A program made the translations under genes and the position numbers. Positions 5,543 to 19,207 of a stretch of 43,424 nt of DNA are shown in pieces. The stretch covers positions 1 through 43,424 of the forward strand of contig CAZODG010000002.1 in assembly GCA_964578525.1 (NCBI GenBank), read 5' to 3'. The notes under the pieces are model-generated. The model did no database searches, was not told where the DNA came from, and saw only the letters and a list, made by a program, of their open reading frames with translations. Every line of letters begins with the position of its first letter. The stretch's first letter is position 1. This stretch comes from an uncultured Actinomycetota bacterium. Lineage in GTDB: Bacteria > Actinomycetota > Humimicrobiia > Humimicrobiales > Humimicrobiaceae.

Positions 5543-5801
5543 CCTAATACTTTGGACTTCAATGACCTCATTTAGATTTTTTTCTCTTCCTGCATTCTTT
5601 CGTCTGCAAGCCTCAAATATTACCGAATACTGTCTCTATCCAAAGATTGGTCTAAATAATATCAGAAATTATAAGAATTGTCAAATAAATTATTTATAAA
5701 TGTTTTTATAATTATCTTTAAAATTTATTTTATTGTTTTATTAGGTTTATAACTTAAGCAAAAAGTATGCCTGGCATACGAATCTTCATCTTTGGTAAAA
5801 T

Positions 5802-6203
5802 TTATTTGCAATAGATTTTTTCTCCATTTCTGATTTCTTTTAATTCATTTATTTTTCCTATGTCTATAATATTACCAATAATTGTAACAGGACTGGCAGC
5901 CTGAGGTTTATCGCCCTGACTTGCAGGAGTTTTACCAAAAAAAATACATAATGCACTTCCGGGAGGCCAGAACGCTACTGTACCTATATCAACTTCTTCA
6001 ATACCATTTTCAATATCTGCCTTTAAAGGAATTGAAAAGTATATTTCGTCTCCCCATCTATTAACATTAGAGTCGATGGGCAGTATTTCAAGTAATTCTT
6101 TTGCCGTTTTTGTCTCATTTAATTGCACTTTGATATCAAGTTTGCCAATCAATAAATTTATAGTTTTTTTTATTTTATTATCATTTCCTGATTTTTTTTG
6201 CAT
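5802..6203 (-). CDS. Cyclophilin-like fold protein (TM1367-like family)
   Basis: RWGDEIYFSIP ... GTVAFWPPGSALCIFFGKTP...QAASPVTIIGNI closely follows the motif pattern of the TM1367-type cyclophilin-like family. Confidence 0.75.
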   Translation of the reverse strand: MQKKSGNDNKIKKTINLLIGKLDIKVQLNETKTAKELLEILPIDSNVNRWGDEIYFSIPLKADIENGIEEVDIGTVAFWPPGSALCIFFGKTPASQGDKPQAASPVTIIGNIIDIGKINELKEIRNGEKIYCK

Positions 6204-6322
6204 AATTACCTCTTTCTTCTAATAAAAATATTGTTATTTATATATAAAATGATAAGCCGCGTTATAAACTAAAAATGCCTAAAAAATGGTTTTAGATTAA
6301 AATGAATAAGCAAATGAGTTTG

Positions 6323-6730
6323 CTATTTTCTAAGTAGCGAAAAGTTCAGATCCGTTCCCGTGATTTCATTACCGTCGCCGTCGAGCATCAAGACTTCATC
6401 TTGAGAGACAACCTTGAGATATTGCTCGATGGAGCCATCGGATCTTAACAGCACTAATCTGCCTTCTTCGTCGATTTCCCAGCTGCCAGTCGAGATAAAA
6501 GGTTCTGAATCCGTACCCAGATAGGTAAATGAAAATGTATATGTCTTATCGGATTCTACAGATAGTTCCGCTTTAATCCCTTCACAGTCGGCGCATGGAA
6601 TCATACCTTCATAATTGCCAACAGCTTCATCTTTTTTGCAGCCTGATGCCAATATTCCAAGTAAAAATATAATCAGTAAAACAAAAGCAGTTAATTTTTT
6701 TATATTGCCGGACATAATGTTTCCTTTCAT
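6323..6730 (-). CDS. Lipoprotein with an NlpE N-terminal-like domain
   Basis: Lipobox LASGC. YEGMIPCADCEGIKAELSVESDKTY matches the NlpE-N CxxC motif (Y.G.LPCADC.GI...L.L). Confidence 0.65.
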   Translation of the reverse strand: MKGNIMSGNIKKLTAFVLLIIFLLGILASGCKKDEAVGNYEGMIPCADCEGIKAELSVESDKTYTFSFTYLGTDSEPFISTGSWEIDEEGRLVLLRSDGSIEQYLKVVSQDEVLMLDGDGNEITGTDLNFSLLRK

Positions 6731-6748
6731 TAAGCTACTTCCCCATAT

Positions 6749-7543
6749 TTATGATAATAGCGTGCTGTCTTCTGCAAATTCTTCACCGCTGACGTTGCCG
6801 AAACGCACCAGAAGATCCTCTACTGTAAGTTTTTGTTTTTCCTTCCCGCTTATCTCCAGAACAATCTGCCCTTCATACATCATTATCAGCCTGTCACCGT
6901 GCCTTATGGCATCGCGCATATTATGAGTCACCATCAGGGTGGTTAAATTATTTTCCTTAATGATCCTATCACTTAATCTTAGAACCTTTTGCGCGGTCTT
7001 GGGATCAAGCGCTGCCGCATGTTCATCCAAAAGCAAAAGCTTGGGTTTCTTTATTGTCGCCATCAGTAGCGTCAATGCCTGCCGCTGTCCACCCGAAAGC
7101 ATTCCTACTTTTATACTGAGACGGTTTTCAAGGCCCAGACCCAGCGTCCTGAGTAGTTCCCTGTACTCCTCACGCTCTTTATTGCTGATACCCCAGGAAA
7201 GGCCACGGCGCTTTCCACGCCGCAGGGCAAGGGCTAAATTCTCTTCGATACCCATATTTCCGGCCGTACCCATTATTGGATCCTGAAATACACGGCCCAG
7301 CACCTCGGCACGTTTATATTCGTTAAGATTCGTTACATCCTTACCATCAATTACTATCGAACCTTTATCCACAGGATATACACCCGCTACACAATTAAGC
7401 AGCGTAGATTTACCCGACCCGTTGCCGCCAATGAGTGTCACAAATTCACCTTTTTCAAGTTTAAGATTGACACTTTTCAGGGCTACCTTTTCATTTACAG
7501 TTCTGTGATTAAATATTTTGGTGACTTTTTTGACGTCAAGCAT
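6749..7543 (-). CDS. ABC transporter ATP-binding protein (PF04392-type uptake system)
   Basis: Walker A GGNGSGKST, signature LSGGQRQ, Walker B LLLLDEH. Directly abuts the permease gene. Confidence 0.9.
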   Translation of the reverse strand: MLDVKKVTKIFNHRTVNEKVALKSVNLKLEKGEFVTLIGGNGSGKSTLLNCVAGVYPVDKGSIVIDGKDVTNLNEYKRAEVLGRVFQDPIMGTAGNMGIEENLALALRRGKRRGLSWGISNKEREEYRELLRTLGLGLENRLSIKVGMLSGGQRQALTLLMATIKKPKLLLLDEHAAALDPKTAQKVLRLSDRIIKENNLTTLMVTHNMRDAIRHGDRLIMMYEGQIVLEISGKEKQKLTVEDLLVRFGNVSGEEFAEDSTLLS

Positions 7544-8437
7544 TTACTCTCCCCTTCTAAAAGACTTCTTTAATGGAACCAGATAAGAGCGGAATACCGG
7601 CAGGGAAAGAGCTACAGCTACGGTTATGGCTGTAAAAAGTTTTAAATCATTTGCGGGCATGCCCAGCCTGAGCACCACGGCAATGATGATACGGTAAGTG
7701 ATTGCACCAAGCGCCAGGGAGAGCAGCCGGACATAGAAGTTCTTTTTACCAAATAGAACTTCGCCTATAATAACAGATGCCAGGCCTATTACGATGGAAC
7801 CTATCCCCATCTGAATATCTGCAAAACTCTGGCTCTGCGCGATAAGCGCACCGCCGATAGCAACCAGGCCGTTACTGATCATGAGACCCAGTATAATCGT
7901 AGTGTTTGTATTGATACCCTGTGCACGGGCCATCTGAGGATTATCACCTGTTGCCCGTATTGCACAGCCTATTTCCGTTCCAAAAAACCAGTACAGGATA
8001 CCGGTAATGCTGCCGACAAAAATCAGCCCCAGTACAATTACAGAGCTCATGTGGTTCATTCCCATCTTTTCAAACACGGTATATGCGGTATCCACACGTA
8101 ATAGCGAAATGTTTGCCCTTCCCATTATCCGTAAATTGATTGAATACAGGGCAATCATTGTCAGGATTCCCGCAAGAAGCGAGGGAATTTTAAGTTTGGT
8201 GTGCAGCAGTCCGGTTATGAGACCAGCACTCAAGCCGCCAAGGAACGCCAGCAAAATTGCGAGATAAGCGTTAATGCCTTTGGTTATTGCAAATGCAGCA
8301 ATAGATGCACCCATAACGATACTGCCCTCGACTGTCAGGTCCGCAATAGTCAGGATGCGGTAAGTGATATAAACACCTATTGTTATAATCGCCCAGAGCA
8401 GACCAAGGGAAAGTGCTCCCATTAATATCTGCAGCAT
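7544..8437 (-). CDS. ABC transporter permease
   Basis: 297 aa, polytopic and hydrophobic. Contiguous with the ATPase gene (stop and start are adjacent). Confidence 0.85.
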   Translation of the reverse strand: MLQILMGALSLGLLWAIITIGVYITYRILTIADLTVEGSIVMGASIAAFAITKGINAYLAILLAFLGGLSAGLITGLLHTKLKIPSLLAGILTMIALYSINLRIMGRANISLLRVDTAYTVFEKMGMNHMSSVIVLGLIFVGSITGILYWFFGTEIGCAIRATGDNPQMARAQGINTNTTIILGLMISNGLVAIGGALIAQSQSFADIQMGIGSIVIGLASVIIGEVLFGKKNFYVRLLSLALGAITYRIIIAVVLRLGMPANDLKLFTAITVAVALSLPVFRSYLVPLKKSFRRGE

Positions 8438-8532: not shown

Positions 8533-9513
8533 TTACTCTTCTTCGAGAATGTACTCGGTCAGATCAGCCGGAATCACAAGGCCAATCTCTTCGGCAACAA
8601 CACCATTGATTGCATAATCAAATTCGGTAGCCGATTCGATTGCCATTGTGGCAGGTTCTGCTTCGCCTTTTAAAATCTTAACAGCCATGAGGCCAGTCTG
8701 GTATCCAAGATCGTAATAATTAATTCCCAGTGTTGCCAGACCGCCAGCTATTACCATGCCGGACTCACCGCAGATTACCGGTGTTTTTGACTCTACTGTA
8801 ACTCCGTTTATCACGGGCATGGAAGATGCCAGTATATTATCGGTAGGAAGATAAAGCGCATCACAGTCTTGCACGATTGACTGAGCAGCCTGCTGCACAT
8901 CATTGGAATTAGTAATGGTAACTTCCGTATAGGTAAGGCCCATCTCCTCTATGACTGCTTTTGCGATTTCTGCCTGCACGATGGAATTATCCTCACTGGA
9001 AGTATAGATTACGCCTATAGTCTGGACATCCGGAACCAGTTTTACGAGTAATTCAATCTGTTCCCTGATTGGGTTCATGTCCGTGGTGCCACTGACATTA
9101 CCGCCGGGGGCTTCATTGGAATCCACAAGCTTAGCAGCTTCATAATCCGTAATAGCTGTTCCAAGTATGGGGATATCTTTTGTCTTGCCTGCAATGGACT
9201 GAGCCGCAGGTGTTGCGATAGCAAGTACCAGATCCACCTTGTTTGCAACAAAACGGTCACTGATGGTAGAAAGGTTGCTCTGGTCTGCCTGTGCATTCTG
9301 AAGATCAATTGTGATATTCTCGCCATCAACATAACCGTTGTCGGCAAGAGCATCGATAAATCCATCTCTGGCAGCATCCAGGGCGATATGTTCAACATAC
9401 TGGATAATACCTATCGTAGGATTTTTTGCTGCCTTGTCCTTACAACCTGATATTACCAGGGTAAAGGACATCACTAGCATGATAGCTAGTATGATAATTG
9501 CTGTTTTTTTCAA
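8533..9513 (-). CDS. ABC transporter substrate-binding lipoprotein (ABC_sub_bind / BMP-like family)
   Basis: Lipobox ISGC. IGIIQYVEH.ALD....GF...L...G fits the PF04392 family. TTG start with SD gaggagg 6 nt upstream. Confidence 0.85.
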   Translation of the reverse strand: MKKTAIIILAIMLVMSFTLVISGCKDKAAKNPTIGIIQYVEHIALDAARDGFIDALADNGYVDGENITIDLQNAQADQSNLSTISDRFVANKVDLVLAIATPAAQSIAGKTKDIPILGTAITDYEAAKLVDSNEAPGGNVSGTTDMNPIREQIELLVKLVPDVQTIGVIYTSSEDNSIVQAEIAKAVIEEMGLTYTEVTITNSNDVQQAAQSIVQDCDALYLPTDNILASSMPVINGVTVESKTPVICGESGMVIAGGLATLGINYYDLGYQTGLMAVKILKGEAEPATMAIESATEFDYAINGVVAEEIGLVIPADLTEYILEEE

Positions 9514-9560
9514 TTTAGCTCCTCCTCATTGTTTAATTCACAATTCTTAATAGTTATCTA

Positions 9561-9588
9561 ATTATAATGAAAAAAATTTTTATGTGAA
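9561..9588 (-). promoter_or_regulatory. Sigma70-type promoter of the ABC importer operon
   Basis: Minus strand reads TTCACA-N16-TATAAT, about 45 nt upstream of the TTG start. Confidence 0.55.
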
Positions 9589-9751
9589 TAGATATAAGAA
9601 TATTTGTATAAATGAGGTTTTTTGATGTTTTTGGTAGATTCTAAAAGATCAGGCTATTTCCGGGAAGTTTTTATTGCATTTATATCTGCCCTATTGATTA
9701 TTTTTTAATCTTCAAACAGAAGAAGATACTGCGGAATCAACAACTCATAGA

Positions 9752-9832
9752 TTTAGTCTATAAGCCGAGTTATAGACTAAAAATACTTAGAAGATGTGTT
9801 TAAGGTTGTAATAATAAAATAGATAATTATTA
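9752..9832. repeat. Intergenic repeat element, copy B, with a perfect 11-bp hairpin
   Basis: tttagtctata-agccgagt-tatagactaaa hairpin at 9752-9781. From the loop onward (9764-9813) it is near-identical to 473-522. Confidence 0.8.
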
Positions 9833-9922
9833 ACTTCAACATCAAGATTTCCGATAGATTTTATTTCTCTTACAATAATTCTTTTAATTGATCTTTCTTC
9901 TAATGAAATCACTTAAAGAGTT

Positions 9923-9950
9923 TTTATAAATTGCTCTTTAGTGCTAAAAT
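9923..9950 (+). promoter_or_regulatory. Sigma70-type promoter (TTTATA-N16-TGcTAAAAT), cassette copy 2
   Basis: Same architecture as 3853-3880 and 30/33 nt identity to it. It lies about 50 nt upstream of the TIR gene. Confidence 0.5.
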
Positions 9951-10000
9951 TTTTAAATATCCAAAAGAATCTTTAAATATTAGGGGTCAGACAGTATTTT

Positions 10001-11014
10001 ATGAAAAATGATACTTCCAAAATGTACACATATGACTTTGCAATTTCGTATGCAAGTGAGGAAGAAGAAATAGCCAGAAGAATTTCTCAGTCAATCAAAG
10101 AAAAAAATTGCGACTATGCAATCTTTTTTGCACCTAACGAGAGGGCTAAGCTGATTGGACAAGATGGAGAAAAGTTTTTTGAAAATTTATTTGCATATTC
10201 AAAACAAGTGATTGTTATATTATCTGAGAACTATAAGAGAAAAGAATGGCCAAGATATGAATGGGATATAATCAGAAAAAAAATTAAGGAGAATAGATTT
10301 TTTCCAATTAAAACTGATAATGTAGAAATCTTAGGTCTACCTTCAAGTTTTATTTACTATCGCTTCTCAAATAATTTTGAAGATATAGCTTCCTTATGTA
10401 TTGAAAAATTAATTTCCTTTGAACGCGAAATTGGAATTAAAAGAGAAACAGAGTTTCAAAAAATGGTAAAAGACTTACGCGAGTCAAGGGGCACAATTGA
10501 TAAATCTTTTCAATTAGTTGTTGATAAGAGACAGAGAACACCCCTTAAAGATATTAACTATCCAACAGATAATTATAATAAATCTTATAAAATCATTTCA
10601 GAAGAAAACCTGTCATTTTCAGTAATTTCCAGATTAAAAATAAAAATTGATTTACCTGATAACTTAAGTAAAGATGAGGTAGTTTTTAATATTAAACATT
10701 GTACTGCCTATATTTTTAATAACAAAAAACCTGATGCTTTAGCTATATTTATATATTCCTCAAAATCTAAAAATTTTCAAGATTTCGGAAAGTTTAATGT
10801 AGCAAGGGCTGAATTTGCACCTTTTGGTGATTGGGGAAAAGCTGAAGAAGGATTTGTATACAATTTACCTTCGGATAAATTTGAATGGAAGATAGAATTC
10901 GAGGAAAGCTATTTTGATAAAAGTAAAAAAATGAAAACAGCAGATGAATTAGCTAGAGATTTGATTCTTGAAATACTAAAAAACAAACATAAAGAGAATG
11001 ATACATCTAAATAA
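10001..11014 (+). CDS. TIR-domain protein with an uncharacterised C-terminal domain of about 200 aa
   Basis: N-terminus YDFAISYASEE..IA..I...L (TIR beta-A) and VIVILSENYKRKEWPRYEWDII (S.NY..S.W...E motif). The predicted catalytic Glu is E87, codon 10259-10261. Residues from about 140 to 337 match nothing I recognise. Confidence 0.8.
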   Translation: MKNDTSKMYTYDFAISYASEEEEIARRISQSIKEKNCDYAIFFAPNERAKLIGQDGEKFFENLFAYSKQVIVILSENYKRKEWPRYEWDIIRKKIKENRFFPIKTDNVEILGLPSSFIYYRFSNNFEDIASLCIEKLISFEREIGIKRETEFQKMVKDLRESRGTIDKSFQLVVDKRQRTPLKDINYPTDNYNKSYKIISEENLSFSVISRLKIKIDLPDNLSKDEVVFNIKHCTAYIFNNKKPDALAIFIYSSKSKNFQDFGKFNVARAEFAPFGDWGKAEEGFVYNLPSDKFEWKIEFEESYFDKSKKMKTADELARDLILEILKNKHKENDTSK

Positions 11015-11052
11015 AAGACTTTTTACCTTAATTATTCATTTTCATTATTATT

Positions 11053-11138
11053 AGGAGAGGGAGGGATTCGAACCCCCGGAGGACAAAGCCCTCAACAGTT
11101 TTTAAGACCGCCGCATTCGACCACTCTGCCACCTCTCC
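11053..11138 (-). tRNA. Type-II (long variable arm) tRNA, anticodon UAA, so tRNA-Leu(UAA)
   Basis: Minus strand reads GGAGAGG-TG-GCAG..TGC-G-GCGGT-CUUAAAA-ACUGU-(variable arm GAGGGC-UUU-GUCCUC)-GGGGG-TTCGAAT-CCCTC-CCTCTCC. The cloverleaf folds by hand. There is no encoded CCA. The discriminator is U. Confidence 0.85.
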
Positions 11139-11238
11139 AACACTCCATAGGAGTGTTTGCATTAAGTTATCACAATCTTAAATAAACATAAATATTTTAA
11201 TTTTTAATATTTATAATTTTTCAGAATACTACCTAAAA

Positions 11239-12456
11239 TTATTCGATAAAGGTTATATATTTTAATGTGTTTGGATTAAATTTAGTATTATCTTTTAGAT
11301 ATTTATTAATCGATTTTCTTAATATTTCCTCAAGGCTATTTAAGTCTTCAAAATTTGGGATTAAAATTTTTTCACCGTGTAATATATCACTTCTTAAGTT
11401 ATAACTTTTTAAAACTAAATCAAAGATTTTTTTTCTTTCTGAATTATTGTCTTTGAGCAAAAATGCAGTTCTAATAGCAAGTTTATATTGTAGCTCTTGA
11501 TTTATATCTTTCAGGAATAAAGCTTCTAATCCTATAATAAAATCTATTAGTTTATTAATTAAATTCTGATTGTTAATACCACTATCAAACCTCTGAACTG
11601 CGATATTAAAATTATTCTCTTTAATTATTTTTAAATTTTTATAAATATTTTGAAACTTCTTTAAATCTGCAGAAGAGAATTCAAAAACTTCATCAAATAA
11701 CAGATTTCGTTCTGTAGTTGAAATGCTATGAAAGTCTTTATAAAAGCTTACTACGAAAGAATATATATTGTTACCTAAAAAAACTCCCGATCTCCTCATA
11801 ATTCTTAAACTTTTTATTACATTTTTAAATGTTTCTCTTGATATATTATTCTCATCATATAGTTCTTTGTTTCTTTCTAAGTTAACACTTTTTATAGCAT
11901 TATCGTTTTCAACAATTATTTTTTTTAACCTATATTTCCTTTCTAGAACTGTGGAAAAATATATTTCATATAGAGGAAAAGGATATAAAACATCCATATT
12001 ATAGTCATCTATAATATGGATATCTTTTAAAAAATCAGGATCATTCCTAATATAAAAACTATCATCTATATGAATACATTCTTGCTCTAATTTGAAATTA
12101 AATAATCTAGCCTTATCAATCATTTCAAAGTATTCTGAATAAAATAAATCTTCAAATAGGATATAAAAATTTTTGAAATTTGCTTTATTAAGTTTTTTAT
12201 TAATTATTTCATTAATAAAATCAAATATTATATCTGTATAATCAAAAACCTGTTTTTCCATAGGGTAAATTATTTTATTAATGAAAGTTGATATTTTTTG
12301 ATCTTTTTTTAATTCTTCTAAAAATTCTTTATATTCATTCAATTGTATTATTGTTGAATTAAAAAATTTAAAATCTGAAACTTCAGACTTAAATATAGAC
12401 TTAGTTTTTTGATATAATTTGTAAGCTTTTTCAAATAATCTATTGTTTCTTACCAT
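11239..12456 (-). CDS. Protein with a C-terminal HEPN-like domain (Rx4H) and an unknown N-terminal region of about 290 aa
   Basis: The C-terminal region of about 110 aa reads IDFIIGLEALF...ELQYKLAIRTAFLL...IFDLVLKSYNLRSDILHGE. R355-x4-H360 (11377-11394) fits the HEPN RNase motif as seen in Apea-like and MAE_28990-like HEPN families. No Walker motif. Confidence 0.6.
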   Translation of the reverse strand: MVRNNRLFEKAYKLYQKTKSIFKSEVSDFKFFNSTIIQLNEYKEFLEELKKDQKISTFINKIIYPMEKQVFDYTDIIFDFINEIINKKLNKANFKNFYILFEDLFYSEYFEMIDKARLFNFKLEQECIHIDDSFYIRNDPDFLKDIHIIDDYNMDVLYPFPLYEIYFSTVLERKYRLKKIIVENDNAIKSVNLERNKELYDENNISRETFKNVIKSLRIMRRSGVFLGNNIYSFVVSFYKDFHSISTTERNLLFDEVFEFSSADLKKFQNIYKNLKIIKENNFNIAVQRFDSGINNQNLINKLIDFIIGLEALFLKDINQELQYKLAIRTAFLLKDNNSERKKIFDLVLKSYNLRSDILHGEKILIPNFEDLNSLEEILRKSINKYLKDNTKFNPNTLKYITFIE

Positions 12457-12477
12457 CTTAAATTCTCAGAATAAGTT

Positions 12478-13572
12478 TTAATACATTGTTATTACTCTTA
12501 ATATTTTTTGCTCTGGTATATATTCTAGTGAAACTAAAAACTTTATTATCTCCCCTGTATCACCAGCTATGACTTCAATTTGTATATTAAATTTTGTTGT
12601 ACTATGTTCCACATCATATTCCATATTATAGATATAATTATCCTTAATCTTGCTTCTAATTAATCCTTGAAGTTCTTTAATATTTATGTCCAACATGCAA
12701 CCTTTTTTAAATTTGCCACTTTTTTCCCCAAGTAAATATTTTAATTTACCTTCTTCTATTAGTATTTCAAAATCATCAATATTAAAAATAGTTCTTGAAA
12801 TGGTATTTAGGGAAAACAATGTATCTTCTTCAAAACCCTTATATACTTTACGTTCAATCTTATAAGATAGAAATAGATCAAAATACATCCCAGGCAAACT
12901 AATACAAGTATAGCCATTTTCTTCGAATGGGTAACCACGCATGTTAAAGTTTTTAGATTCTTCAACATCATCTTCGTGTCCCATTATTATATTACTTTTA
13001 TTTTTTATAAAATCATTGATTACTGTCATTGACGCATAAGTTTTCATATAGCTAGAGTTTGTCACATCAATAAAACCGACATATGGTTTAAAACTCTTAA
13101 GACCTTCATTCATCTTATTAAACATATTAATTGTCATGTTATTTATATATACAAAAAATAGTAAACTACTATGTATGTAAGTAAAATCTTTAACTAATAT
13201 TATTGATTCAGCAAACTTTTCATATAAAAAATCTTGACTCTTATTATGATTAATAAAATCTCCAGCCAGTACACTATGAGAACTTCGCTTATCAAGTAAG
13301 GGTATTATCTTTTCAAATACTGGGTATCCATAAAAAGATGAGTCTATTTCTTTGCTATTAAAAACAAAAATAATTTCTAAACGATCCAAACTTGGAGTTA
13401 AACAGCTTTTTAAATTCTGATATTCTATTCCTTTTATTCGCAAAATCTCAACTGTTTTTTGAAATGCATTATTTATTTCAAAATACATCTGTTCATGGTT
13501 AAGATTAAAATAACTAGCTATAACCTCAAGCATTACATTATCTCTTCCATTTATTGTAAATATAGTACTCAT
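12478..13572 (-). CDS. Hypothetical protein, no recognisable domain (upstream partner of the HEPN gene)
   Basis: 364-aa ORF ending 21 nt before the HEPN gene start on the same strand. No P-loop, TM or nuclease motif identified. Confidence 0.65.
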   Translation of the reverse strand: MSTIFTINGRDNVMLEVIASYFNLNHEQMYFEINNAFQKTVEILRIKGIEYQNLKSCLTPSLDRLEIIFVFNSKEIDSSFYGYPVFEKIIPLLDKRSSHSVLAGDFINHNKSQDFLYEKFAESIILVKDFTYIHSSLLFFVYINNMTINMFNKMNEGLKSFKPYVGFIDVTNSSYMKTYASMTVINDFIKNKSNIIMGHEDDVEESKNFNMRGYPFEENGYTCISLPGMYFDLFLSYKIERKVYKGFEEDTLFSLNTISRTIFNIDDFEILIEEGKLKYLLGEKSGKFKKGCMLDINIKELQGLIRSKIKDNYIYNMEYDVEHSTTKFNIQIEVIAGDTGEIIKFLVSLEYIPEQKILRVITMY

Positions 13573-13657
13573 TTTCTTTAAAAATATTAATAAAGCCCTT
13601 GATTCTACTACATTATACTACTACCCTCCCCATAATTAATAATTCAAAACTATTTTT

Positions 13658-14533
13658 ATGAACCAATACATTGATTATTTCTTAAATTACTTACAAACAG
13701 AAAAAGACGCTGCAAAATCCACAATTCATAAATACAGAGCTGATTTAGAAAGATTATTTGAATATTTACAAGTAACTGATATTAATGAAATTAATCAAAA
13801 TCATTTAAGAGATTATTTAAATCATATCAGACAAACTTATAGCTACACTTCAAGTTCAATTGCAAATAAGATTAATATATTACATCACTTTTTCAGGTTT
13901 CTTGATAATTCCGGTTACATAAAAATCAACCCTGCTATTTTAATTAGACCACCAAGAAAAAAAGTTAAAATTCCAAAAGTATTTAATGATATTGAACTTG
14001 AAAAATTCTTAAGTGCAACTGAACACAATACCTATACCAAATATAAAAAATATGCTTTACGAGATAAATTAATCTTTACAATGTTTGCTTATACTGGACT
14101 GAGGCGAACTGAACTTATTAACCTAAACTGGAATGATATTAATTTAGGAAATAGGTATTTAATTGTAAGAAAATCTAAAAATAAAAATCAAAGAATAATA
14201 CCGCTTCATGATAAGATTCTTGAGTTATTGGATAAATATTTATCTGAAAGACTGCCTTTAAAAAATAATGCCTTATTTATCGGCAGAACAGTACAGTGTA
14301 TTCATCATAACAGTTTAAAAAATCTATTTGACCGGTATATTAAAATTGCAGGGCTTTCTGGTAAAGGCTTTACAATTCATACTTTAAGACATACTTTTGC
14401 AACAAGATTACTCAATAAAGATGTAAGCCTTGTTAATATTAAGAATTTGATTGGTCATAGAAGTTTAGAATCGACACAGATTTACTTACATGTAACTGGA
14501 AAAGAGTTGGAAGAATCAATAAAGATGCTCTAA
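13658..14533 (+). CDS. Tyrosine site-specific recombinase (XerC/XerD-like integrase)
   Basis: N-terminal SAM-like core-binding domain (YLQTEKDAAKSTIHKYRADL). Catalytic residues in GLRRTEL, HTLRHTFAT and GHRSLESTQIYLHV (R-H-R-Y). Confidence 0.9.
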   Translation: MNQYIDYFLNYLQTEKDAAKSTIHKYRADLERLFEYLQVTDINEINQNHLRDYLNHIRQTYSYTSSSIANKINILHHFFRFLDNSGYIKINPAILIRPPRKKVKIPKVFNDIELEKFLSATEHNTYTKYKKYALRDKLIFTMFAYTGLRRTELINLNWNDINLGNRYLIVRKSKNKNQRIIPLHDKILELLDKYLSERLPLKNNALFIGRTVQCIHHNSLKNLFDRYIKIAGLSGKGFTIHTLRHTFATRLLNKDVSLVNIKNLIGHRSLESTQIYLHVTGKELEESIKML

Positions 14534-14538
14534 TTATT

Positions 14539-15135
14539 TTATTTTTTGGTATTTGTCTTGGTTTCTCCCTTAAAGGTCATTACCCCATCTACTTTTATGG
14601 TGAATATATTTTTAAATTCTTTTTCAATCATATTTAAATAATCATCGATCTCTCTTTTTATACTAATCTCATTGAAAAGAAAGTTTAAATTATCTTTTAT
14701 GTCTATTAGTAATCCTGGATTGAACTTCTTTAAATTATCAATTAAGATTCTAATGCTATTTTTGTAATATAGGTATGTACTAAAATAAACATCAATCTCA
14801 TTTATTGAAATTTTATTTAATTTTAATAATCTTCCTAGTTTTGATAAAAATAATATCAATCTATAGCTTCTTTTATTTATATCTTCGTTGTATTTGTCAC
14901 CCTTAAATTCTTCCTTTGCAAAATCTTCAAAAAATTTTAAATGATCATTTACAAACTCATCTCTTAGAATAAAACCTAAGTTATTTTGATCCTCAATTTC
15001 TTTATTTTTCCTATCTAATGCCCTATCAGTTAAATAATCTCTAAATTTATAAAAAGCAATTACCGCTGTTGCTGTAACAATAGCAGCCATAAAAATTGTA
15101 CCAAATCCTGTTAAAATATTCGGCCAGTTCAACAT
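14539..15135 (-). CDS. Membrane-anchored hypothetical protein (last gene of the R-M-vsr operon)
   Basis: Single N-terminal TM helix (ILTGFGTIFMAAIVTATAVIAFY) followed by about 165 aa of charged helical-looking sequence. It starts 14 nt after the vsr stop. Confidence 0.6.
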   Translation of the reverse strand: MLNWPNILTGFGTIFMAAIVTATAVIAFYKFRDYLTDRALDRKNKEIEDQNNLGFILRDEFVNDHLKFFEDFAKEEFKGDKYNEDINKRSYRLILFLSKLGRLLKLNKISINEIDVYFSTYLYYKNSIRILIDNLKKFNPGLLIDIKDNLNFLFNEISIKREIDDYLNMIEKEFKNIFTIKVDGVMTFKGETKTNTKK

Positions 15136-15149
15136 TTACTGCCCTCTTT

Positions 15150-15638
15150 TTAGTTTCTTTTAGTATATAAATCTATAACTCTACTCAGAGTTTCAATAAA
15201 GTTTTTATTAATTTCACATTCCCATATTACTAGAACAGCCCAACCTATGTTTTCAAGTCTTTTTATTTTTAATCTATCTCGTTCTTTGTTTCTTTTAAAT
15301 TTTTTTACCCAGAATTCTCTGTTTTCTTTTGGTAGTCTCAGATTACATTTTGGACACCTATGCCAAAAACAACCATTGATAAATATGGCTATCTTTAATC
15401 TAGGAAAACAGATATCAGGTCTACCAGGGACTTCCTTCCAACTTGTTCTATAGCCTCTAATACCTTCGGCGAATAAGGCTCGACGTAAACTAAGCTCAGG
15501 TTTTGTATTCTTAGAGACATTGCCTTTCATCGACTTTGAGACATTTTTTGAAGAAGCTTTTGGTGAAGGGCCTAAGAAAACTGACATCTTCTCTCGAAAA
15601 ATAAGATTGCCTTTTGCCCTTATATCAGACATATGCAA
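15150..15638 (-). CDS. vsr: Very-short-patch repair endonuclease
   Basis: SKNTKPELSLRRAL...G.RGYR and GRPDICFPRLKIAIFINGCFWHRC are hallmark Vsr motifs. Confidence 0.9.
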   Translation of the reverse strand: MHMSDIRAKGNLIFREKMSVFLGPSPKASSKNVSKSMKGNVSKNTKPELSLRRALFAEGIRGYRTSWKEVPGRPDICFPRLKIAIFINGCFWHRCPKCNLRLPKENREFWVKKFKRNKERDRLKIKRLENIGWAVLVIWECEINKNFIETLSRVIDLYTKRN

Positions 15639-15639
15639 A

Positions 15640-16902
15640 TTATACTCTCTGTATTACTTTTGAATCAGAATATTTATAATTTACCCCATTCTCTAATAAT
15701 TCTGATAATTTTTGTCCAATTCTTTCTATTAATCCTACTACTAATGCATTCCCCATACAGAAATAACGCCATTTTAAAGGCATGCCTGTATCAGTCCAGC
15801 TATCTGGAAAACCATTTAGCCTTTCAGCTTCTAATGGGGTTATTATTCTTAACCGACCATTCTCGGGATCTCTAAGAACATGAGTAAACCTATTGGGTTT
15901 TTTATTCCCTTCATTTGTAATAAGAGTACGTGATGGTCTGTCTAATCTATCTGGAAAAGTTATTGCACCTTCTTTATAATTATAACTATAGCCGCTTTTT
16001 GAAGTCCTGATTTCATTTTTTGCACCTTTGTGATATTTCCAAGAATCAATTTCTTCCTCAGGTAGGTAATAGTATTCATCAACTTCATTTTCTAATATCT
16101 CACCTAAACAATGTTGGTTTTCTAATATTGGATTTACTGTTTTAGTATATATGTTCCCTCTCAACATTAGCCCTGCATTATGAAAATCATATTTAAACTC
16201 TTCCGTGATTTTTACTAAATCACCAGTTAAGGTTACATTTTCATCTAAGCTATTCAAAGTCAAACTTTTATATTTCGTTTCTTGCACTGGAAATGCCCTT
16301 CCAAAAAAACCATTCTTTTCAATTATGTCATACTTATCTATACCATTTTCATAAAGGTTTTTTAGAGGACTCTCAAATAATGATGCTAGAATAAAAACCC
16401 TAAACCTTCTTTGTGGAAAGCCATAGTCTGAAGAGTTGATTACTCTCCATTCTACATTATAGTCTAGATTGTTTAAGCAACTTAAAATAACACCAAAATC
16501 TCTACCCCTTTTATTAGAAGGTGAGCGCAAAAGACGATCTACATTCTCAAGCAATACTAATGGTGGACGTAAGCTCTCAAGTATATGATATATCTCCCAC
16601 CAAAGAACTCCCTTTTTACCTTTTATTCCTTTAGCATTAGTCGCGGCAACTGAGTAATCTTGGCAAGGGAACCCACCTACTAAAAGATCGTGTGGGGGAA
16701 TATTATATTTTTCTTTAGCTATATCAATATTTGTGTGACCTTCTTTACCAAAGTGCGATATATAACACTCAGAAGCATATTGGTCTTTCCTTTTAGGTTC
16801 CCATTGATTCGAATATATTGTTCTCCAACCACTTTTTCCTAATCCTAACCTAAAACCACCGACACCTGCAAAAAGCTCACAGATTGTTTTTAAACTCTTC
16901 AA
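15640..16902 (-). CDS. dcm: DNA (cytosine-5)-methyltransferase
   Basis: Motif I ELFAGVGGF, motif IV GGFPCQDYS (catalytic C80), motif VI ENV, motif VIII QRRFRVFI, motif X GNALVVGL. Confidence 0.95.
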   Translation of the reverse strand: MKSLKTICELFAGVGGFRLGLGKSGWRTIYSNQWEPKRKDQYASECYISHFGKEGHTNIDIAKEKYNIPPHDLLVGGFPCQDYSVAATNAKGIKGKKGVLWWEIYHILESLRPPLVLLENVDRLLRSPSNKRGRDFGVILSCLNNLDYNVEWRVINSSDYGFPQRRFRVFILASLFESPLKNLYENGIDKYDIIEKNGFFGRAFPVQETKYKSLTLNSLDENVTLTGDLVKITEEFKYDFHNAGLMLRGNIYTKTVNPILENQHCLGEILENEVDEYYYLPEEEIDSWKYHKGAKNEIRTSKSGYSYNYKEGAITFPDRLDRPSRTLITNEGNKKPNRFTHVLRDPENGRLRIITPLEAERLNGFPDSWTDTGMPLKWRYFCMGNALVVGLIERIGQKLSELLENGVNYKYSDSKVIQRV

Positions 16903-17783
16903 AATAACTCTCCAGATGAAAAATAATCTTTAAAGTACTCTTTTAAATCCTTATTGCTTATAGGTGATACTCCCTGCCTTGATAAATTAGAGCAAACTTT
17001 TGAAAACGTTATAAAACCTAATAAAAACCCAATGATACTAATATGTGTCAATGCATTATTGACTCTACCTACTTTTCCGTTCCAACTTTTCTTTTTTTTA
17101 ATAATATCGCGGTAATAGTATTTACAATCTTCATTCCACATTAAAAGCTCATTATAATATAGAAAACCTTCAAGGCTTAATCCTCCCCATATCGTATGAC
17201 ATTTATTTTCTAAGTAATTCAATATTCTCTCATCTGGATTATATTTATAGAAAGACTTTTGATTTACCGAACCCTTATTAATTATTTCTTTCTCTATATC
17301 CTTATCAATATACAAATCCACATATTTAGTATTAAAGTTATCTAATTTTAAATAATCTATCATAAAAGCCATTCTATATAATAATATAACAATTATTTCG
17401 AATACTTCTATTTTATTGGAATCTATAATCTTTTTAAAATTTTCATTCATAATATCCCATATATCCCTAAAACTCATATCACTTAACCATGATAAACTCT
17501 TTTCAACATAAGCTCTTGGTCTAAAATCCCAAGGTCTTTCCGCGTCACCTTTTCTTGAAGATTCTTTTCCAGGGTATTGGATAAAAAATTTTTCGCTGGA
17601 ACTGGTTTCGTGAATCAATAATTGTCTCTCTCTATTTCCATACTCAAGATGACTTCTATCTAAATTTTCTATCCATTCGATATTAGCTACTCTACGCTTG
17701 TATGAGTCACCCTTTTTACTACAATTTTGCAACGGTGAAACTAATAGACTCTTTATGTAATCCTCGTTTATGTTATCTTTCAT
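16899..17783 (-). CDS. Putative type II restriction endonuclease (assigned by context only)
   Basis: 294-aa orphan ORF whose stop overlaps the methyltransferase start by 4 nt. I could not locate a clear PD-(D/E)xK, HNH or GIY-YIG motif. Confidence 0.45.
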   Translation of the reverse strand: MKDNINEDYIKSLLVSPLQNCSKKGDSYKRRVANIEWIENLDRSHLEYGNRERQLLIHETSSSEKFFIQYPGKESSRKGDAERPWDFRPRAYVEKSLSWLSDMSFRDIWDIMNENFKKIIDSNKIEVFEIIVILLYRMAFMIDYLKLDNFNTKYVDLYIDKDIEKEIINKGSVNQKSFYKYNPDERILNYLENKCHTIWGGLSLEGFLYYNELLMWNEDCKYYYRDIIKKKKSWNGKVGRVNNALTHISIIGFLLGFITFSKVCSNLSRQGVSPISNKDLKEYFKDYFSSGELF

Positions 17784-17849
17784 AAATATTTTTTTCTTAA
17801 AACTTATCTTTTATAAAGAAAAAGTATCAATTGGCCCCATCAAATTAAT

Positions 17850-18056
17850 TTATTTAAATATTTTAAAACAACTATTTAAATCCATCTTTAATCTTTCTAA
17901 GTCCTTACTATAAAATATTACTTCTTGCCTGACAAGGCCTGAAGGAAGTTTTGTTCTCTTGCTAGCAATTAGAATCACTTCTTTATCAAGTCCAAGAGCT
18001 AACCCAAGTTCAAAGCCCGTGTTGAAAGTAGAATTGGTAAGATTAACTAAAAAATT
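17850..18056 (-). pseudogene. C-terminal fragment of a TIR-like / nucleoside 2-deoxyribosyltransferase-fold protein
   Basis: Start-less frame reading NLTNSTFNTGFELGLALGLDKEVILIASKRTKLPSGLVRQEVIFY...*. The N(V/T)xFELG...LGK..V.L....(E/K)LPS(D/G)L pattern is typical of TIR-like (COG4271/Cap12-type) and NDT-fold proteins. An in-frame TAG lies upstream, and a separate short ATG ORF (from 18195) is in another frame. Confidence 0.3.
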
Positions 18057-18271
18057 CTATTACCTGTTAACCATATTGTATATTAAAATTAATCTTGTTG
18101 AAATAACAGATAAGGCTAAAAGCAAAAGCGTAAAATCCGTACTTCCAATGCCCCACTCCTTCTTGACAACTATACCCAAAGTGATTAAAATTCATGTTTA
18201 GCTTTAAATTAGCTGTATTACTATAAACAATTAAAAATCATAAAAAACTTTAATCGAATTTAGCAAAGGAG

Positions 18272-19207
18272 ATGCGCAAATTGGAAATCATAAAAAGAAA
18301 ACTTCCCGTATTTATTATCATTCTGACTCTTACGTTATCGATCATTCTGATGATCCCCTCTGTATTATTTGCACAGGATGAAGAGGCAACTGACGAAGAA
18401 GAGGTAATTGCACCGCCGCCGGTCCCGGCAACAATAGAATTTGAAACTACTCTTCCCAAAATACAGGGAAAGGATGGGGAAACATTCACTTTTAGCTTCA
18501 CTGCAATATATGATCCGGGAGATGTAGCGGTCGATTCAGAAGCAAACACAACCGATAAAACCTTTGATATCACAGTTGATTATCCAACCAGCTGGATTGC
18601 TGCAGTAGCAAGCGGTTCGACTGAGGCACTTTCTATTAATATAAGCCCTAACAGCAGAGAGTCCCTGAGCATGTTAGCTATGCCGCTGATAACACAGGAA
18701 CCCGGTGAATATAACTTCACGGTTAATCTTAAATCCGCTGGAGAAGGCGAATCAGTGGAAGGATCAATAGATTTTACAGCAGTGATAACAGCTACCTATG
18801 AAATAAAACTTACAACAAAAACAGGAAGACTGAGTACGGAACTGACTGCCGGAAAAGATAACGAATACAAACTTATTGTAACCAACAATAGTTCCATATC
18901 CGTTGAAAACATAACCATAAGTTCAACAGAGCCCGAAGGCTGGCAGGTTAATTTCGATAGCAAAACTATTGAATCTATAGAAGCCGGTAAAACTGCTGAA
19001 ATCAATGCAGTGATAAATCCGCCTGAAAAGACTATTGCCGGTGATTATATGCTGAGCTTCAAGGCATCCAGTGAAAACAGCAATTCCAGTATCGAGATCC
19101 GGGCAACAGTGGAAACACCTACCATCTGGGGAATCGTAGGAATAGGAATTATCGTGGTTGTTATAATCGGTGTTGCCATAATCTTTACAAAATTGGGAAG
19201 AAGATAA
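18272..19207 (+). CDS. Secreted, C-terminally anchored NEW3/COG1470-like protein associated with the ABC-2 transporter
   Basis: N-terminal signal and C-terminal TM (WGIVGIGIIVVVIIGVAIIF). The repeated pattern Y.L.V.N.S..S.ENITISS..P.GW.V.F....I.S..AG.......I.PP.....G.Y is typical of this family. Confidence 0.6.
   Translation: MRKLEIIKRKLPVFIIILTLTLSIILMIPSVLFAQDEEATDEEEVIAPPPVPATIEFETTLPKIQGKDGETFTFSFTAIYDPGDVAVDSEANTTDKTFDITVDYPTSWIAAVASGSTEALSINISPNSRESLSMLAMPLITQEPGEYNFTVNLKSAGEGESVEGSIDFTAVITATYEIKLTTKTGRLSTELTAGKDNEYKLIVTNNSSISVENITISSTEPEGWQVNFDSKTIESIEAGKTAEINAVINPPEKTIAGDYMLSFKASSENSNSSIEIRATVETPTIWGIVGIGIIVVVIIGVAIIFTKLGRR

Follow-up and report, generated by a model that had tools for sequence, protein, structure and literature searches.

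Two adjacent genes beside a tyrosine recombinase

We analyzed two neighboring genes, named A and B here, in a 43,424-nucleotide (nt) stretch of DNA from an uncultured bacterium of the Actinomycetota (family Humimicrobiaceae; GenBank assembly GCA_964578525.1, contig CAZODG010000002.1). The whole stretch is referred to as the window. A preliminary description, made from the sequence alone, had presented the two genes as a cassette in which an orphan protein (A) is followed by a protein (B) ending in a HEPN ribonuclease (RNase) module, and had proposed that they form a sensor-effector or toxin-antitoxin-like pair. The arrangement itself was verified from the coordinates of both open reading frames (ORFs) (Table 1). 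A and B lie on the same strand with a 21-nt gap between them, and A diverges from a tyrosine recombinase gene across an intergenic region of 85 bp.

The ratio of nonsynonymous to synonymous substitution rates (dN/dS) was 0.22 for A and 0.21 for B in comparison with the related locus L004, and it was in the range of 0.21 to 0.27 for B across the relatives compared, indicating that both are real genes under purifying selection. In one public record, A is annotated as a 351-amino acid (aa) protein starting at M14, without the 5' stretch at positions 13534-13572. Residues T6 and R10, which are located upstream of M14, are kept in homologues, showing that the 364-aa start at 13572 is the correct one. 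The spacer between A and B is too short to hold an independent promoter, and therefore the two genes are probably co-transcribed at this locus.

Scans of A and B against Pfam, PADLOC, and NCBIfam gave no match at E ≤ 0.1, and for B there was no Pfam or PADLOC match even at E ≤ 1. No Walker A, MNT, or helix-turn-helix model was matched in these scans, in line with what had been noticed earlier for both proteins. In a PHROG scan, A had no match; the sole match overall was that of phrog_28161, a family of unknown function, to the HEPN region of B (aa 268-363, 3.7e-9). When A and B were used as tblastn queries against 50,697 phage records, no match was obtained.

The HEPN domain of B and its family

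The AlphaFold2 (AF2) model of B had a predicted local distance difference test score (pLDDT) of 89 and a predicted template modeling score (pTM) of 0.86. In its C-terminal domain, helices were predicted at residues 299-314, 322-334, 338-359, and 369-388, i.e., four consecutive helices with the lengths expected for a HEPN four-helix bundle. The peptide by which this module had been recognized, GLEALF...YKLAIRTAFLL...YNLRSDILHGE, was found in B. In the model, the third helix (338-359) has R355 in its final turn, and the loop that follows begins with H360. R355 is directly followed by the polar residue S356 (the family consensus is RS), and the E321-L-Q-Y-K325 segment is at the start of helix 322-334. 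Three features define HEPN domains: helix 3 ends in an Rx4H motif, the R is followed by a polar residue, and helix 2 contains an Ex3[KR] motif (Anantharaman et al. 2013, PMC3710099). All three were found in B.

Close homologues of B are rare. A word-indexed search returned only two, which are 82% and 77% identical to B, and the same kind of search with a B alignment returned almost nothing. When 1.84 billion representative sequences, one for each 50%-identity cluster, were scanned exhaustively with HMMER, 2,835 representative proteins were obtained at E ≤ 1e-3, 320 of them at E ≤ 1e-10. Many of these relatives are 400-460 aa long and ~30% identical to B over nearly the full length. Both R355 and H360 were invariant in 150 diverged relatives, showing that the Rx4H motif is no chance match. 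Near-invariant in the same set were R289, D301, D305, E311, E321, R329, Y352, G361, E376, and R380. The N-terminal domain of B is also conserved across full-length relatives, and it had no match in Pfam, PADLOC, or the PDB.

Among 153 relatives of B, only two Pfam families were matched more than once, both below threshold: HEPN_Apea (four relatives, best E 4.2e-4) and HEPN_RiboL-PSP (three relatives, best E 2.3e-4). In a sequence search of the PDB with a profile of 97 diverse B relatives, the top match was Ec4ApeA (9hxm_A, E = 4.8e-4). The match comprises two collinear blocks in the HEPN region of Ec4ApeA (residues 326-386 and 493-539), and the alignment pairs LRNTIVHN of Ec4ApeA with LRSkIVHG of the B family. 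Together, the position of the motif, S356, the Ex3K motif, the invariance of the catalytic-type residues, and the ApeA profile match support the Rx4H HEPN module at the C-terminus of B. These sequence comparisons indicate that the HEPN domain of B is genuine, with the ApeA clade as its nearest relatives.

An additional observation concerns the DNA of gene B. The coding sequence contains a 13-bp perfect inverted repeat, ATCCATATTATAG-TCAT-CTATAATATGGAT, at positions 11992-12021. It encodes the sole low-confidence loop of the B model (aa 151-164), and its arms are largely conserved in relatives.

Distribution of A and the variable slot

Protein A, which had been described as an orphan, turned out to have 401 homologue clusters across many phyla at E ≤ 1e-3. 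Most of the homologues are 362-370 aa long, they are typically 42-57% identical to A over the full length, and all are labeled hypothetical. A scan of one genome per species revealed 76 A loci in Gamma- and Alphaproteobacteria, Bacteroidota, Acidobacteriota, Planctomycetota, Nitrospirota, Chloroflexota, Bacillota, Actinomycetota, Spirochaetota, Gemmatimonadota, and Paceibacterota. The 365-aa family reaches from Vibrio to Mycobacterium, Leptospira, and Paceibacterota at an identity of 40-55%. As judged from these searches, the distribution of A is sporadic yet broad, a pattern typical of accessory genes that spread horizontally.

Across 42 aligned A-family sequences, with identities as low as 28%, R10, Y51, Y142, N145, K177, S181, S236-Y237-K238, E240, and D250 are among the residues that do not vary. 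Given these invariant polar residues, A is possibly an enzyme. The AF2 model of A was confident (pLDDT 90, pTM 0.90). A Foldseek search with this model against the PDB and BFVD gave no match at E < 1e-3; only partial ferredoxin-like or "minor capsid"/polyvalent-protein fragments were obtained. Sequence-profile searches of the PDB, with a narrow profile and with the broadened 42-sequence profile, gave nothing. The sole family signal was DUF6323, itself uncharacterized, which was matched below threshold by 10 of 53 A-family members (best E 0.0016).

When the ORFs within 6 kb of A were searched with a hidden Markov model (HMM) of the B family, no B was detected at any of the 76 loci of the species-representative genomes. 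The model detected B near A only in the window and its close relatives. Conversely, an A HMM had no match in the 19 metagenome loci that contain a B-family gene (the scan for these loci used a 15-sequence subset of the alignment). No conserved neighbor of either family was revealed by all-vs-all BLAST and phmmer clustering of the neighboring genes. The check for co-occurrence in other genomes thus found both genes together only in the close lineage of the window, and the counts (B at 0 of 76 A loci, A at 0 of 19 B loci) do not support the proposed sensor-effector or toxin-antitoxin pair.

The loci of the close lineage differ in what accompanies B. In L004 and L111-113, where B is 82% identical, the order is as in the window: recombinase, A, B, tRNA, TIR. 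In L001-3, where B is 77% identical, the recombinase and B are kept, and a 423-aa unknown gene and an Abi_alpha gene are located between them. Locus L114 lacks A; it contains the TIR gene, an IS3 element, and a B that is truncated at its N terminus.

The boundaries of this exchange were mapped by blastn of the window against L001. Homology, which takes in the recombinase and 66 nt of the intergenic region, ends at position 13592 and resumes at position 12492, 36 nt upstream of the ATG of B. In L001, a 2.26-kb segment with the 423-aa gene and the Abi_alpha gene (5704-7964) replaces the A segment. The window-specific segment nearly equals the A ORF, which marks A as a cassette that can be exchanged while its flanks stay conserved. 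The closeness of A and B probably reflects shared transcription and not a conserved partnership. The window, L004, and L001 share the intergenic sequence until ~19 nt before the cassette start, and it contains a conserved, −10-like TAGTATAATG element. A sigma-70 promoter scan gave matches no more often than shuffled sequence did, which is to be expected of DNA this rich in AT.

The recombinase matched Pfam Phage_integrase (4.7e-37) and SAM_1, and is 82-86% identical at the nt level to its counterparts in L001 and L004. Its best matches were XerD, XerC, and XerA; the score for NCBIfam XerD was 199 bits, below the cut-off of 330, and that for the integron integrase model was 74 bits, below the cut-off of 265. 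An integron was considered and rejected: the recombinase is Xer-like and not IntI, inspection of the A-B junction revealed no canonical attC core (RYYYAAC/GTTRRRY), and a repeat scan of positions 9500-18500 revealed no att-like direct repeat and no long inverted repeat. A classical tRNA-integrated island with att direct repeats was rejected as well, because the tRNA 3' end is not repeated in 9500-18500. The conserved flanks and the exchanged segment suggest a recombinase-associated variable defense slot.

At its other loci, A has varied neighbors. It stands alone among housekeeping genes in L120, L010, and L008. The 134 immediate neighbors of A include GajA (three times), OLD/AriA (four times), McrBC, N6_Mtase, DUF5677 (twice), resolvases, and integrases. 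Ten tight same-strand neighbors with gaps of −4 to 55 nt were tested, and five of them are defense-type effectors or nucleases: HEPN_Cthe2314, a pPIWI-associated nuclease, a CAP12-type TIR protein, DUF5677, and OLD/GajA. Gabija follows A on a mobilizable element (L119), and Wadjet abuts A on a Pseudomonas aeruginosa megaplasmid. This pattern is suggestive of a defense-island resident. We also considered that the upstream neighbors of A are one hidden divergent family, for example a HEPN-like one, and rejected this, because phmmer all-vs-all comparison clustered only near-identical elements. The Cthe_2314-like neighbor aligned in register at the Rx4H motif, at an E value of 0.074, which is not significant.

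A near-identical two-gene unit of DUF5677 and A was observed in three plasmid contexts of the Burkholderiaceae (L091, L115, and L116, at ~6000-8100 in each), and a DUF5677 protein is encoded just downstream of A in the Brevundimonas locus L056. This may be a partnership specific to a sub-family. A link between DUF5677 and HEPN was not shown by hhalign (Prob 0.04).

The region of ~10-18 kb of the window has a GC content of 23-33%, compared with ~40% in the flanks; A and B are located in a low-GC mobile defense island. The TIR_2-domain protein encoded convergently with B matched the PADLOC candidate PDC-S66 (5.6e-10) and, weakly, a retron-TIR model. Its C-terminal region of ~200 aa is of unknown function. 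The TIR gene accompanies B in L004, L111, and L114 and not in L001. Of the four arrangements seen, three have it together with B. The tRNA-Leu(UAA) gene follows B in L004, L111, and L113, is reduced to a ~22-nt remnant in L114, and is absent in L001. It could be the integration target of the island and, speculatively, could be relevant to an anticodon nuclease. Just upstream of it, a promoter-like motif and a CACTCC-TAT-GGAGTG hairpin were observed.

An intergenic repeat of ~50 nt, GCCGAGTTATAGACTAAAAATACTTAAAAGATGTGTTTAAGnTTGTAATAA, is present in the window at 482-513 and 9773-9804, in L001 at ~9228-9297, 9773-9846, and 13020-13087, and in L004 at ~10759-10822. The low-GC island has one of these copies at its left edge. 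The repeat had no match in Rfam and may be a promoter or a REP-like element. A motif resembling it, TTTAAG-TTGTGATAA, precedes the tRNA gene. A cyclophilin-like gene (5802-6203, minus strand) is 94% identical at the DNA level to L001 9347-9748, compared with 83-85% for island genes. It is located directly after B in L001; in the window, an ABC-transporter operon, the TIR gene, and the tRNA gene intervene. This differing placement indicates local rearrangement of the island edge. Beyond the recombinase, a restriction-modification-like module occupies 14539-17783 on the minus strand, and its 294-aa protein is a candidate novel restriction endonuclease.

Table 1. Positions of the two genes, their parts, and the surrounding features in the window
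Feature	Position	Strand	Details
Gene A	12478-13572	minus	ORF, 364 aa
Gene B	11239-12456	minus	ORF, 405 aa
A-B spacer	12457-12477	minus	21 nt; equal 21-nt gap in L004
B N-terminal alpha/beta domain, predicted sensor/regulatory	11677-12456	minus	aa 1-260; mixed helices and strands in AF2 model
B C-terminal helical HEPN domain	11242-11673	minus	aa 262-405; helices in AF2 model, profile match to Ec4ApeA
Catalytic-type motif R355-S-D-I-L-H360	11377-11394	minus	Codons translate to RSDILH
Ex3[KR] acidic motif E321-x3-K325 of HEPN helix 2	11482-11496	minus	Translates to ELQYK
Swappable cassette segment	12493-13591	minus	A ORF minus its last 15 nt, plus 19 nt upstream; no L001 counterpart
Divergent intergenic region, shared promoter region for whichever cassette follows	13573-13657		85 bp between the starts of the recombinase gene and A
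Tyrosine recombinase	13658-14533	plus	291 aa, Xer-like; conserved flank of the variable slot
TIR_2-domain protein	10001-11014	plus	337 aa, convergent with B; Pfam TIR_2 2.7e-11
tRNA-Leu(UAA)	11053-11138	minus	100 nt downstream of the B stop; ARAGORN and Rfam, 55 bits
198-aa unknown	14539-15135	minus	
Vsr	15150-15638	minus	
Dcm C5-methyltransferase	15640-16902	minus	
294-aa ORF	16899-17783	minus	No family match; 4-nt overlap with the Dcm gene

Interpretation and comparison with known systems

We consider it probable, with moderate confidence, that the locus consists of two separate single-gene modules placed side by side in a variable slot, B being an ApeA-type HEPN RNase and A being unrelated to it. 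Cassette shuffling would have brought the two genes together. A would be a cassette between the shared promoter and B, co-transcribed with B and without functional dependence on it. Its family, widespread and unrelated to B, would normally act without a B partner. The precise cassette replacement at this locus implies that tight gene spacing need not mean a functional pair here.

Several observations weigh against this reading. The 21-nt spacing, the shared promoter, and the A-B order, which has been retained in the window, L004, and L111-113 at a synonymous divergence (dS) of 0.4-0.7, would also fit an operon of interacting proteins. The reciprocal search covered only 19 B-family loci, many of which are short contigs. 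Many neighbors of A are housekeeping genes, and the defense association of A is only suggestive. The link to ApeA is borderline: two other B-family profiles, with Ec4ApeA as the first or second match, gave E = 0.013 and E = 0.34. Finally, a Foldseek search of the PDB with the full-length B model retrieved no HEPN structure and no match at E < 1e-3.

The spacing and the retained order, together with the common strand, the single upstream promoter region, and purifying selection on both genes, speak for a recently assembled, lineage-specific two-gene system, with A as the sensor or regulator and B as the HEPN effector. We regard such a system as unlikely. B is present without A in L001 (77% identity) and in L114, the pair was not seen at the other A loci (76) or at the B-family loci (19), and the full-length relatives of B keep their own conserved N-terminal domain, a possible sensor. 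A toxin-antitoxin module, in which A would be the protein antitoxin of the HEPN toxin B, is very improbable: HEPN toxins are common in such pairs, and the upstream position of A and the tight spacing would fit, but A is large (364 aa), is 42-57% identical across phyla without a B partner, and contains no detected MNT, nucleotidyltransferase, or antitoxin-type domain, and the relatives of B stand alone.

The neighbors of A raise another explanation, according to which many toxic effectors, B among them, share A as a modular partner, be it an adaptor, a sensor, or an immunity factor. The five defense-type genes among the ten tight neighbors, the DUF5677-A unit in three plasmid contexts, and Gabija after A in L119 are in agreement with it. 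However, the partners differ in family, side, and orientation, many loci lack an adjacent effector, and Gabija, Wadjet, and the pPIWI-associated set are complete without an extra subunit. Ordinary clustering in defense islands accounts for the neighbor pattern, and we assign this explanation a low probability. There is also only a slight chance that B is not an immune effector but either a HEPN protein that processes RNA for the host or a mobile element, or a HEPN scaffold without activity. HEPN domains do serve in RNA processing as well (PMC3710099), but the catalytic R and H of B are invariant, and B is a sporadic gene that has very few close homologues and is surrounded, in its low-GC island, by TIR, restriction-modification, and Abi genes.

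Returning to two independent modules, a mechanism for B can be proposed by analogy with single-protein HEPN systems. The N-terminal alpha/beta domain (~260 aa) would hold the HEPN domain inactive until an infection cue is sensed. Activated B would form HEPN dimers or oligomers, in which a composite R355/H360 active site is contributed by two subunits. Metal-independent RNA cleavage would then stop translation and lead to abortive infection, and the likeliest targets of B would be tRNA anticodon loops, as for ApeA, HepS, and DARNA. The RNase activity, the tRNA targets, and the sensing by the N-terminal domain are what we infer from this analogy. For A, the most likely candidate role is that of an autonomous defense or conflict protein, which we likewise infer.

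If B is active, it would represent a large uncurated branch of single-protein HEPN effectors, with 2,835 representatives and no Pfam or PADLOC model. Its HEPN core would be related to ApeA and its sensor domain different, widening the range of cues for abortive infection by tRNA cleavage, and structural studies would gain a smaller scaffold. Of the two proteins, A may be the more interesting find, since its confidently predicted structure is unlike anything solved and the gene recurs beside Gabija, Wadjet, TIR, and HEPN genes; it is a concrete candidate for defense-system screens. Tentatively, the locus could have revealed two new stand-alone immunity families: A as a widespread defense or conflict protein of at least 12 phyla, and B as an ApeA-like anticodon nuclease family of ~2,800 proteins with a new sensor. 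A bolder variant would make A a universal adaptor for varied toxic effectors (HEPN, DUF5677, TIR, and OLD).

With regard to known systems, the slot is comparable to recombinase-flanked cassette hot spots such as integron-like arrays, with which it shares a divergent tyrosine recombinase, a common promoter, and exchangeable promoterless defense cassettes. The likeness to integron arrays is in layout only, since the recombinase here is not IntI. With the HEPN clades of Anantharaman et al. 2013 (Apea, RiboL-PSP, Abi-type, and MNT-HEPN), B shares the Rx4H motif in helix 3, the polar residue, and the Ex3[KR] motif. It is nevertheless below the threshold of every Pfam HEPN family, has no PADLOC match, including the Abi-family models, and, in contrast to MNT-HEPN, has no MNT partner.

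Matches of both proteins to a named system such as ApeA would have spoken against the preliminary reading; there was a weak one for B and none for A. B-family profiles match the HEPN domain of ApeA collinearly (A..R(L/F), E..Y..LE.L, Y.LR(S/N).IVH, LE..LR..I), and B shares the single-gene organization of ApeA, there being no conserved neighbor at the 19 B-family loci and the close-lineage loci. However, at 405 aa, B is ~200 aa shorter than ApeA (Ec2ApeA at least 583 aa; Ec4ApeA chain 619 aa), and the two matched HEPN blocks are separated by ~25-40 aa in B and by ~105 aa (386-493) in ApeA. ApeA, which has N-terminal and Mid domains and a HEPN domain split by large insertions, is mostly helical (bioRxiv 10.64898/2026.01.26.701840), whereas the N-terminal region of B is alpha/beta. 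B was not matched by Pfam HEPN_Apea (PF18739), ApeA_NTD1, or PADLOC ApeA, and ApeA_NTD1 had no match in any of the 153 relatives either; one relative matched PADLOC Cas13-ApeA at 0.009. Membership of B in ApeA was rejected on these grounds, i.e., by the Pfam and PADLOC models, length, and domain architecture. The comparison indicates that B is a compact, distant relative of ApeA within a large uncurated family.

HepS and DARNA (PD-T7-3) are constitutively made single-protein HEPN systems, and we take their logic as a parallel for B. They differ from it in architecture: HepS is HEPN-only, and the homologues analyzed in its paper were limited to ≤250 aa, whereas B has 405 aa; DARNA has an N-terminal HEPN domain and a helical C-terminal domain binding single-stranded DNA (ssDNA), whereas the HEPN domain of B is C-terminal. 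Neither surfaced in the PDB searches with B profiles. ApeA, DARNA, and HepS are all auto-inhibited single-protein HEPN oligomers that are activated directly by an infection cue: 5'-phosphorylated deoxydinucleotides for ApeA, SSB-presented ssDNA for DARNA, and a tail-tip protein for HepS. All three cut tRNA anticodon loops, resulting in abortive infection. ApeA, with tRNA anticodon cleavage, activation by a dinucleotide ligand, and doughnut-shaped oligomers (bioRxiv 10.64898/2026.01.26.701840), provides by analogy the best working model for B.

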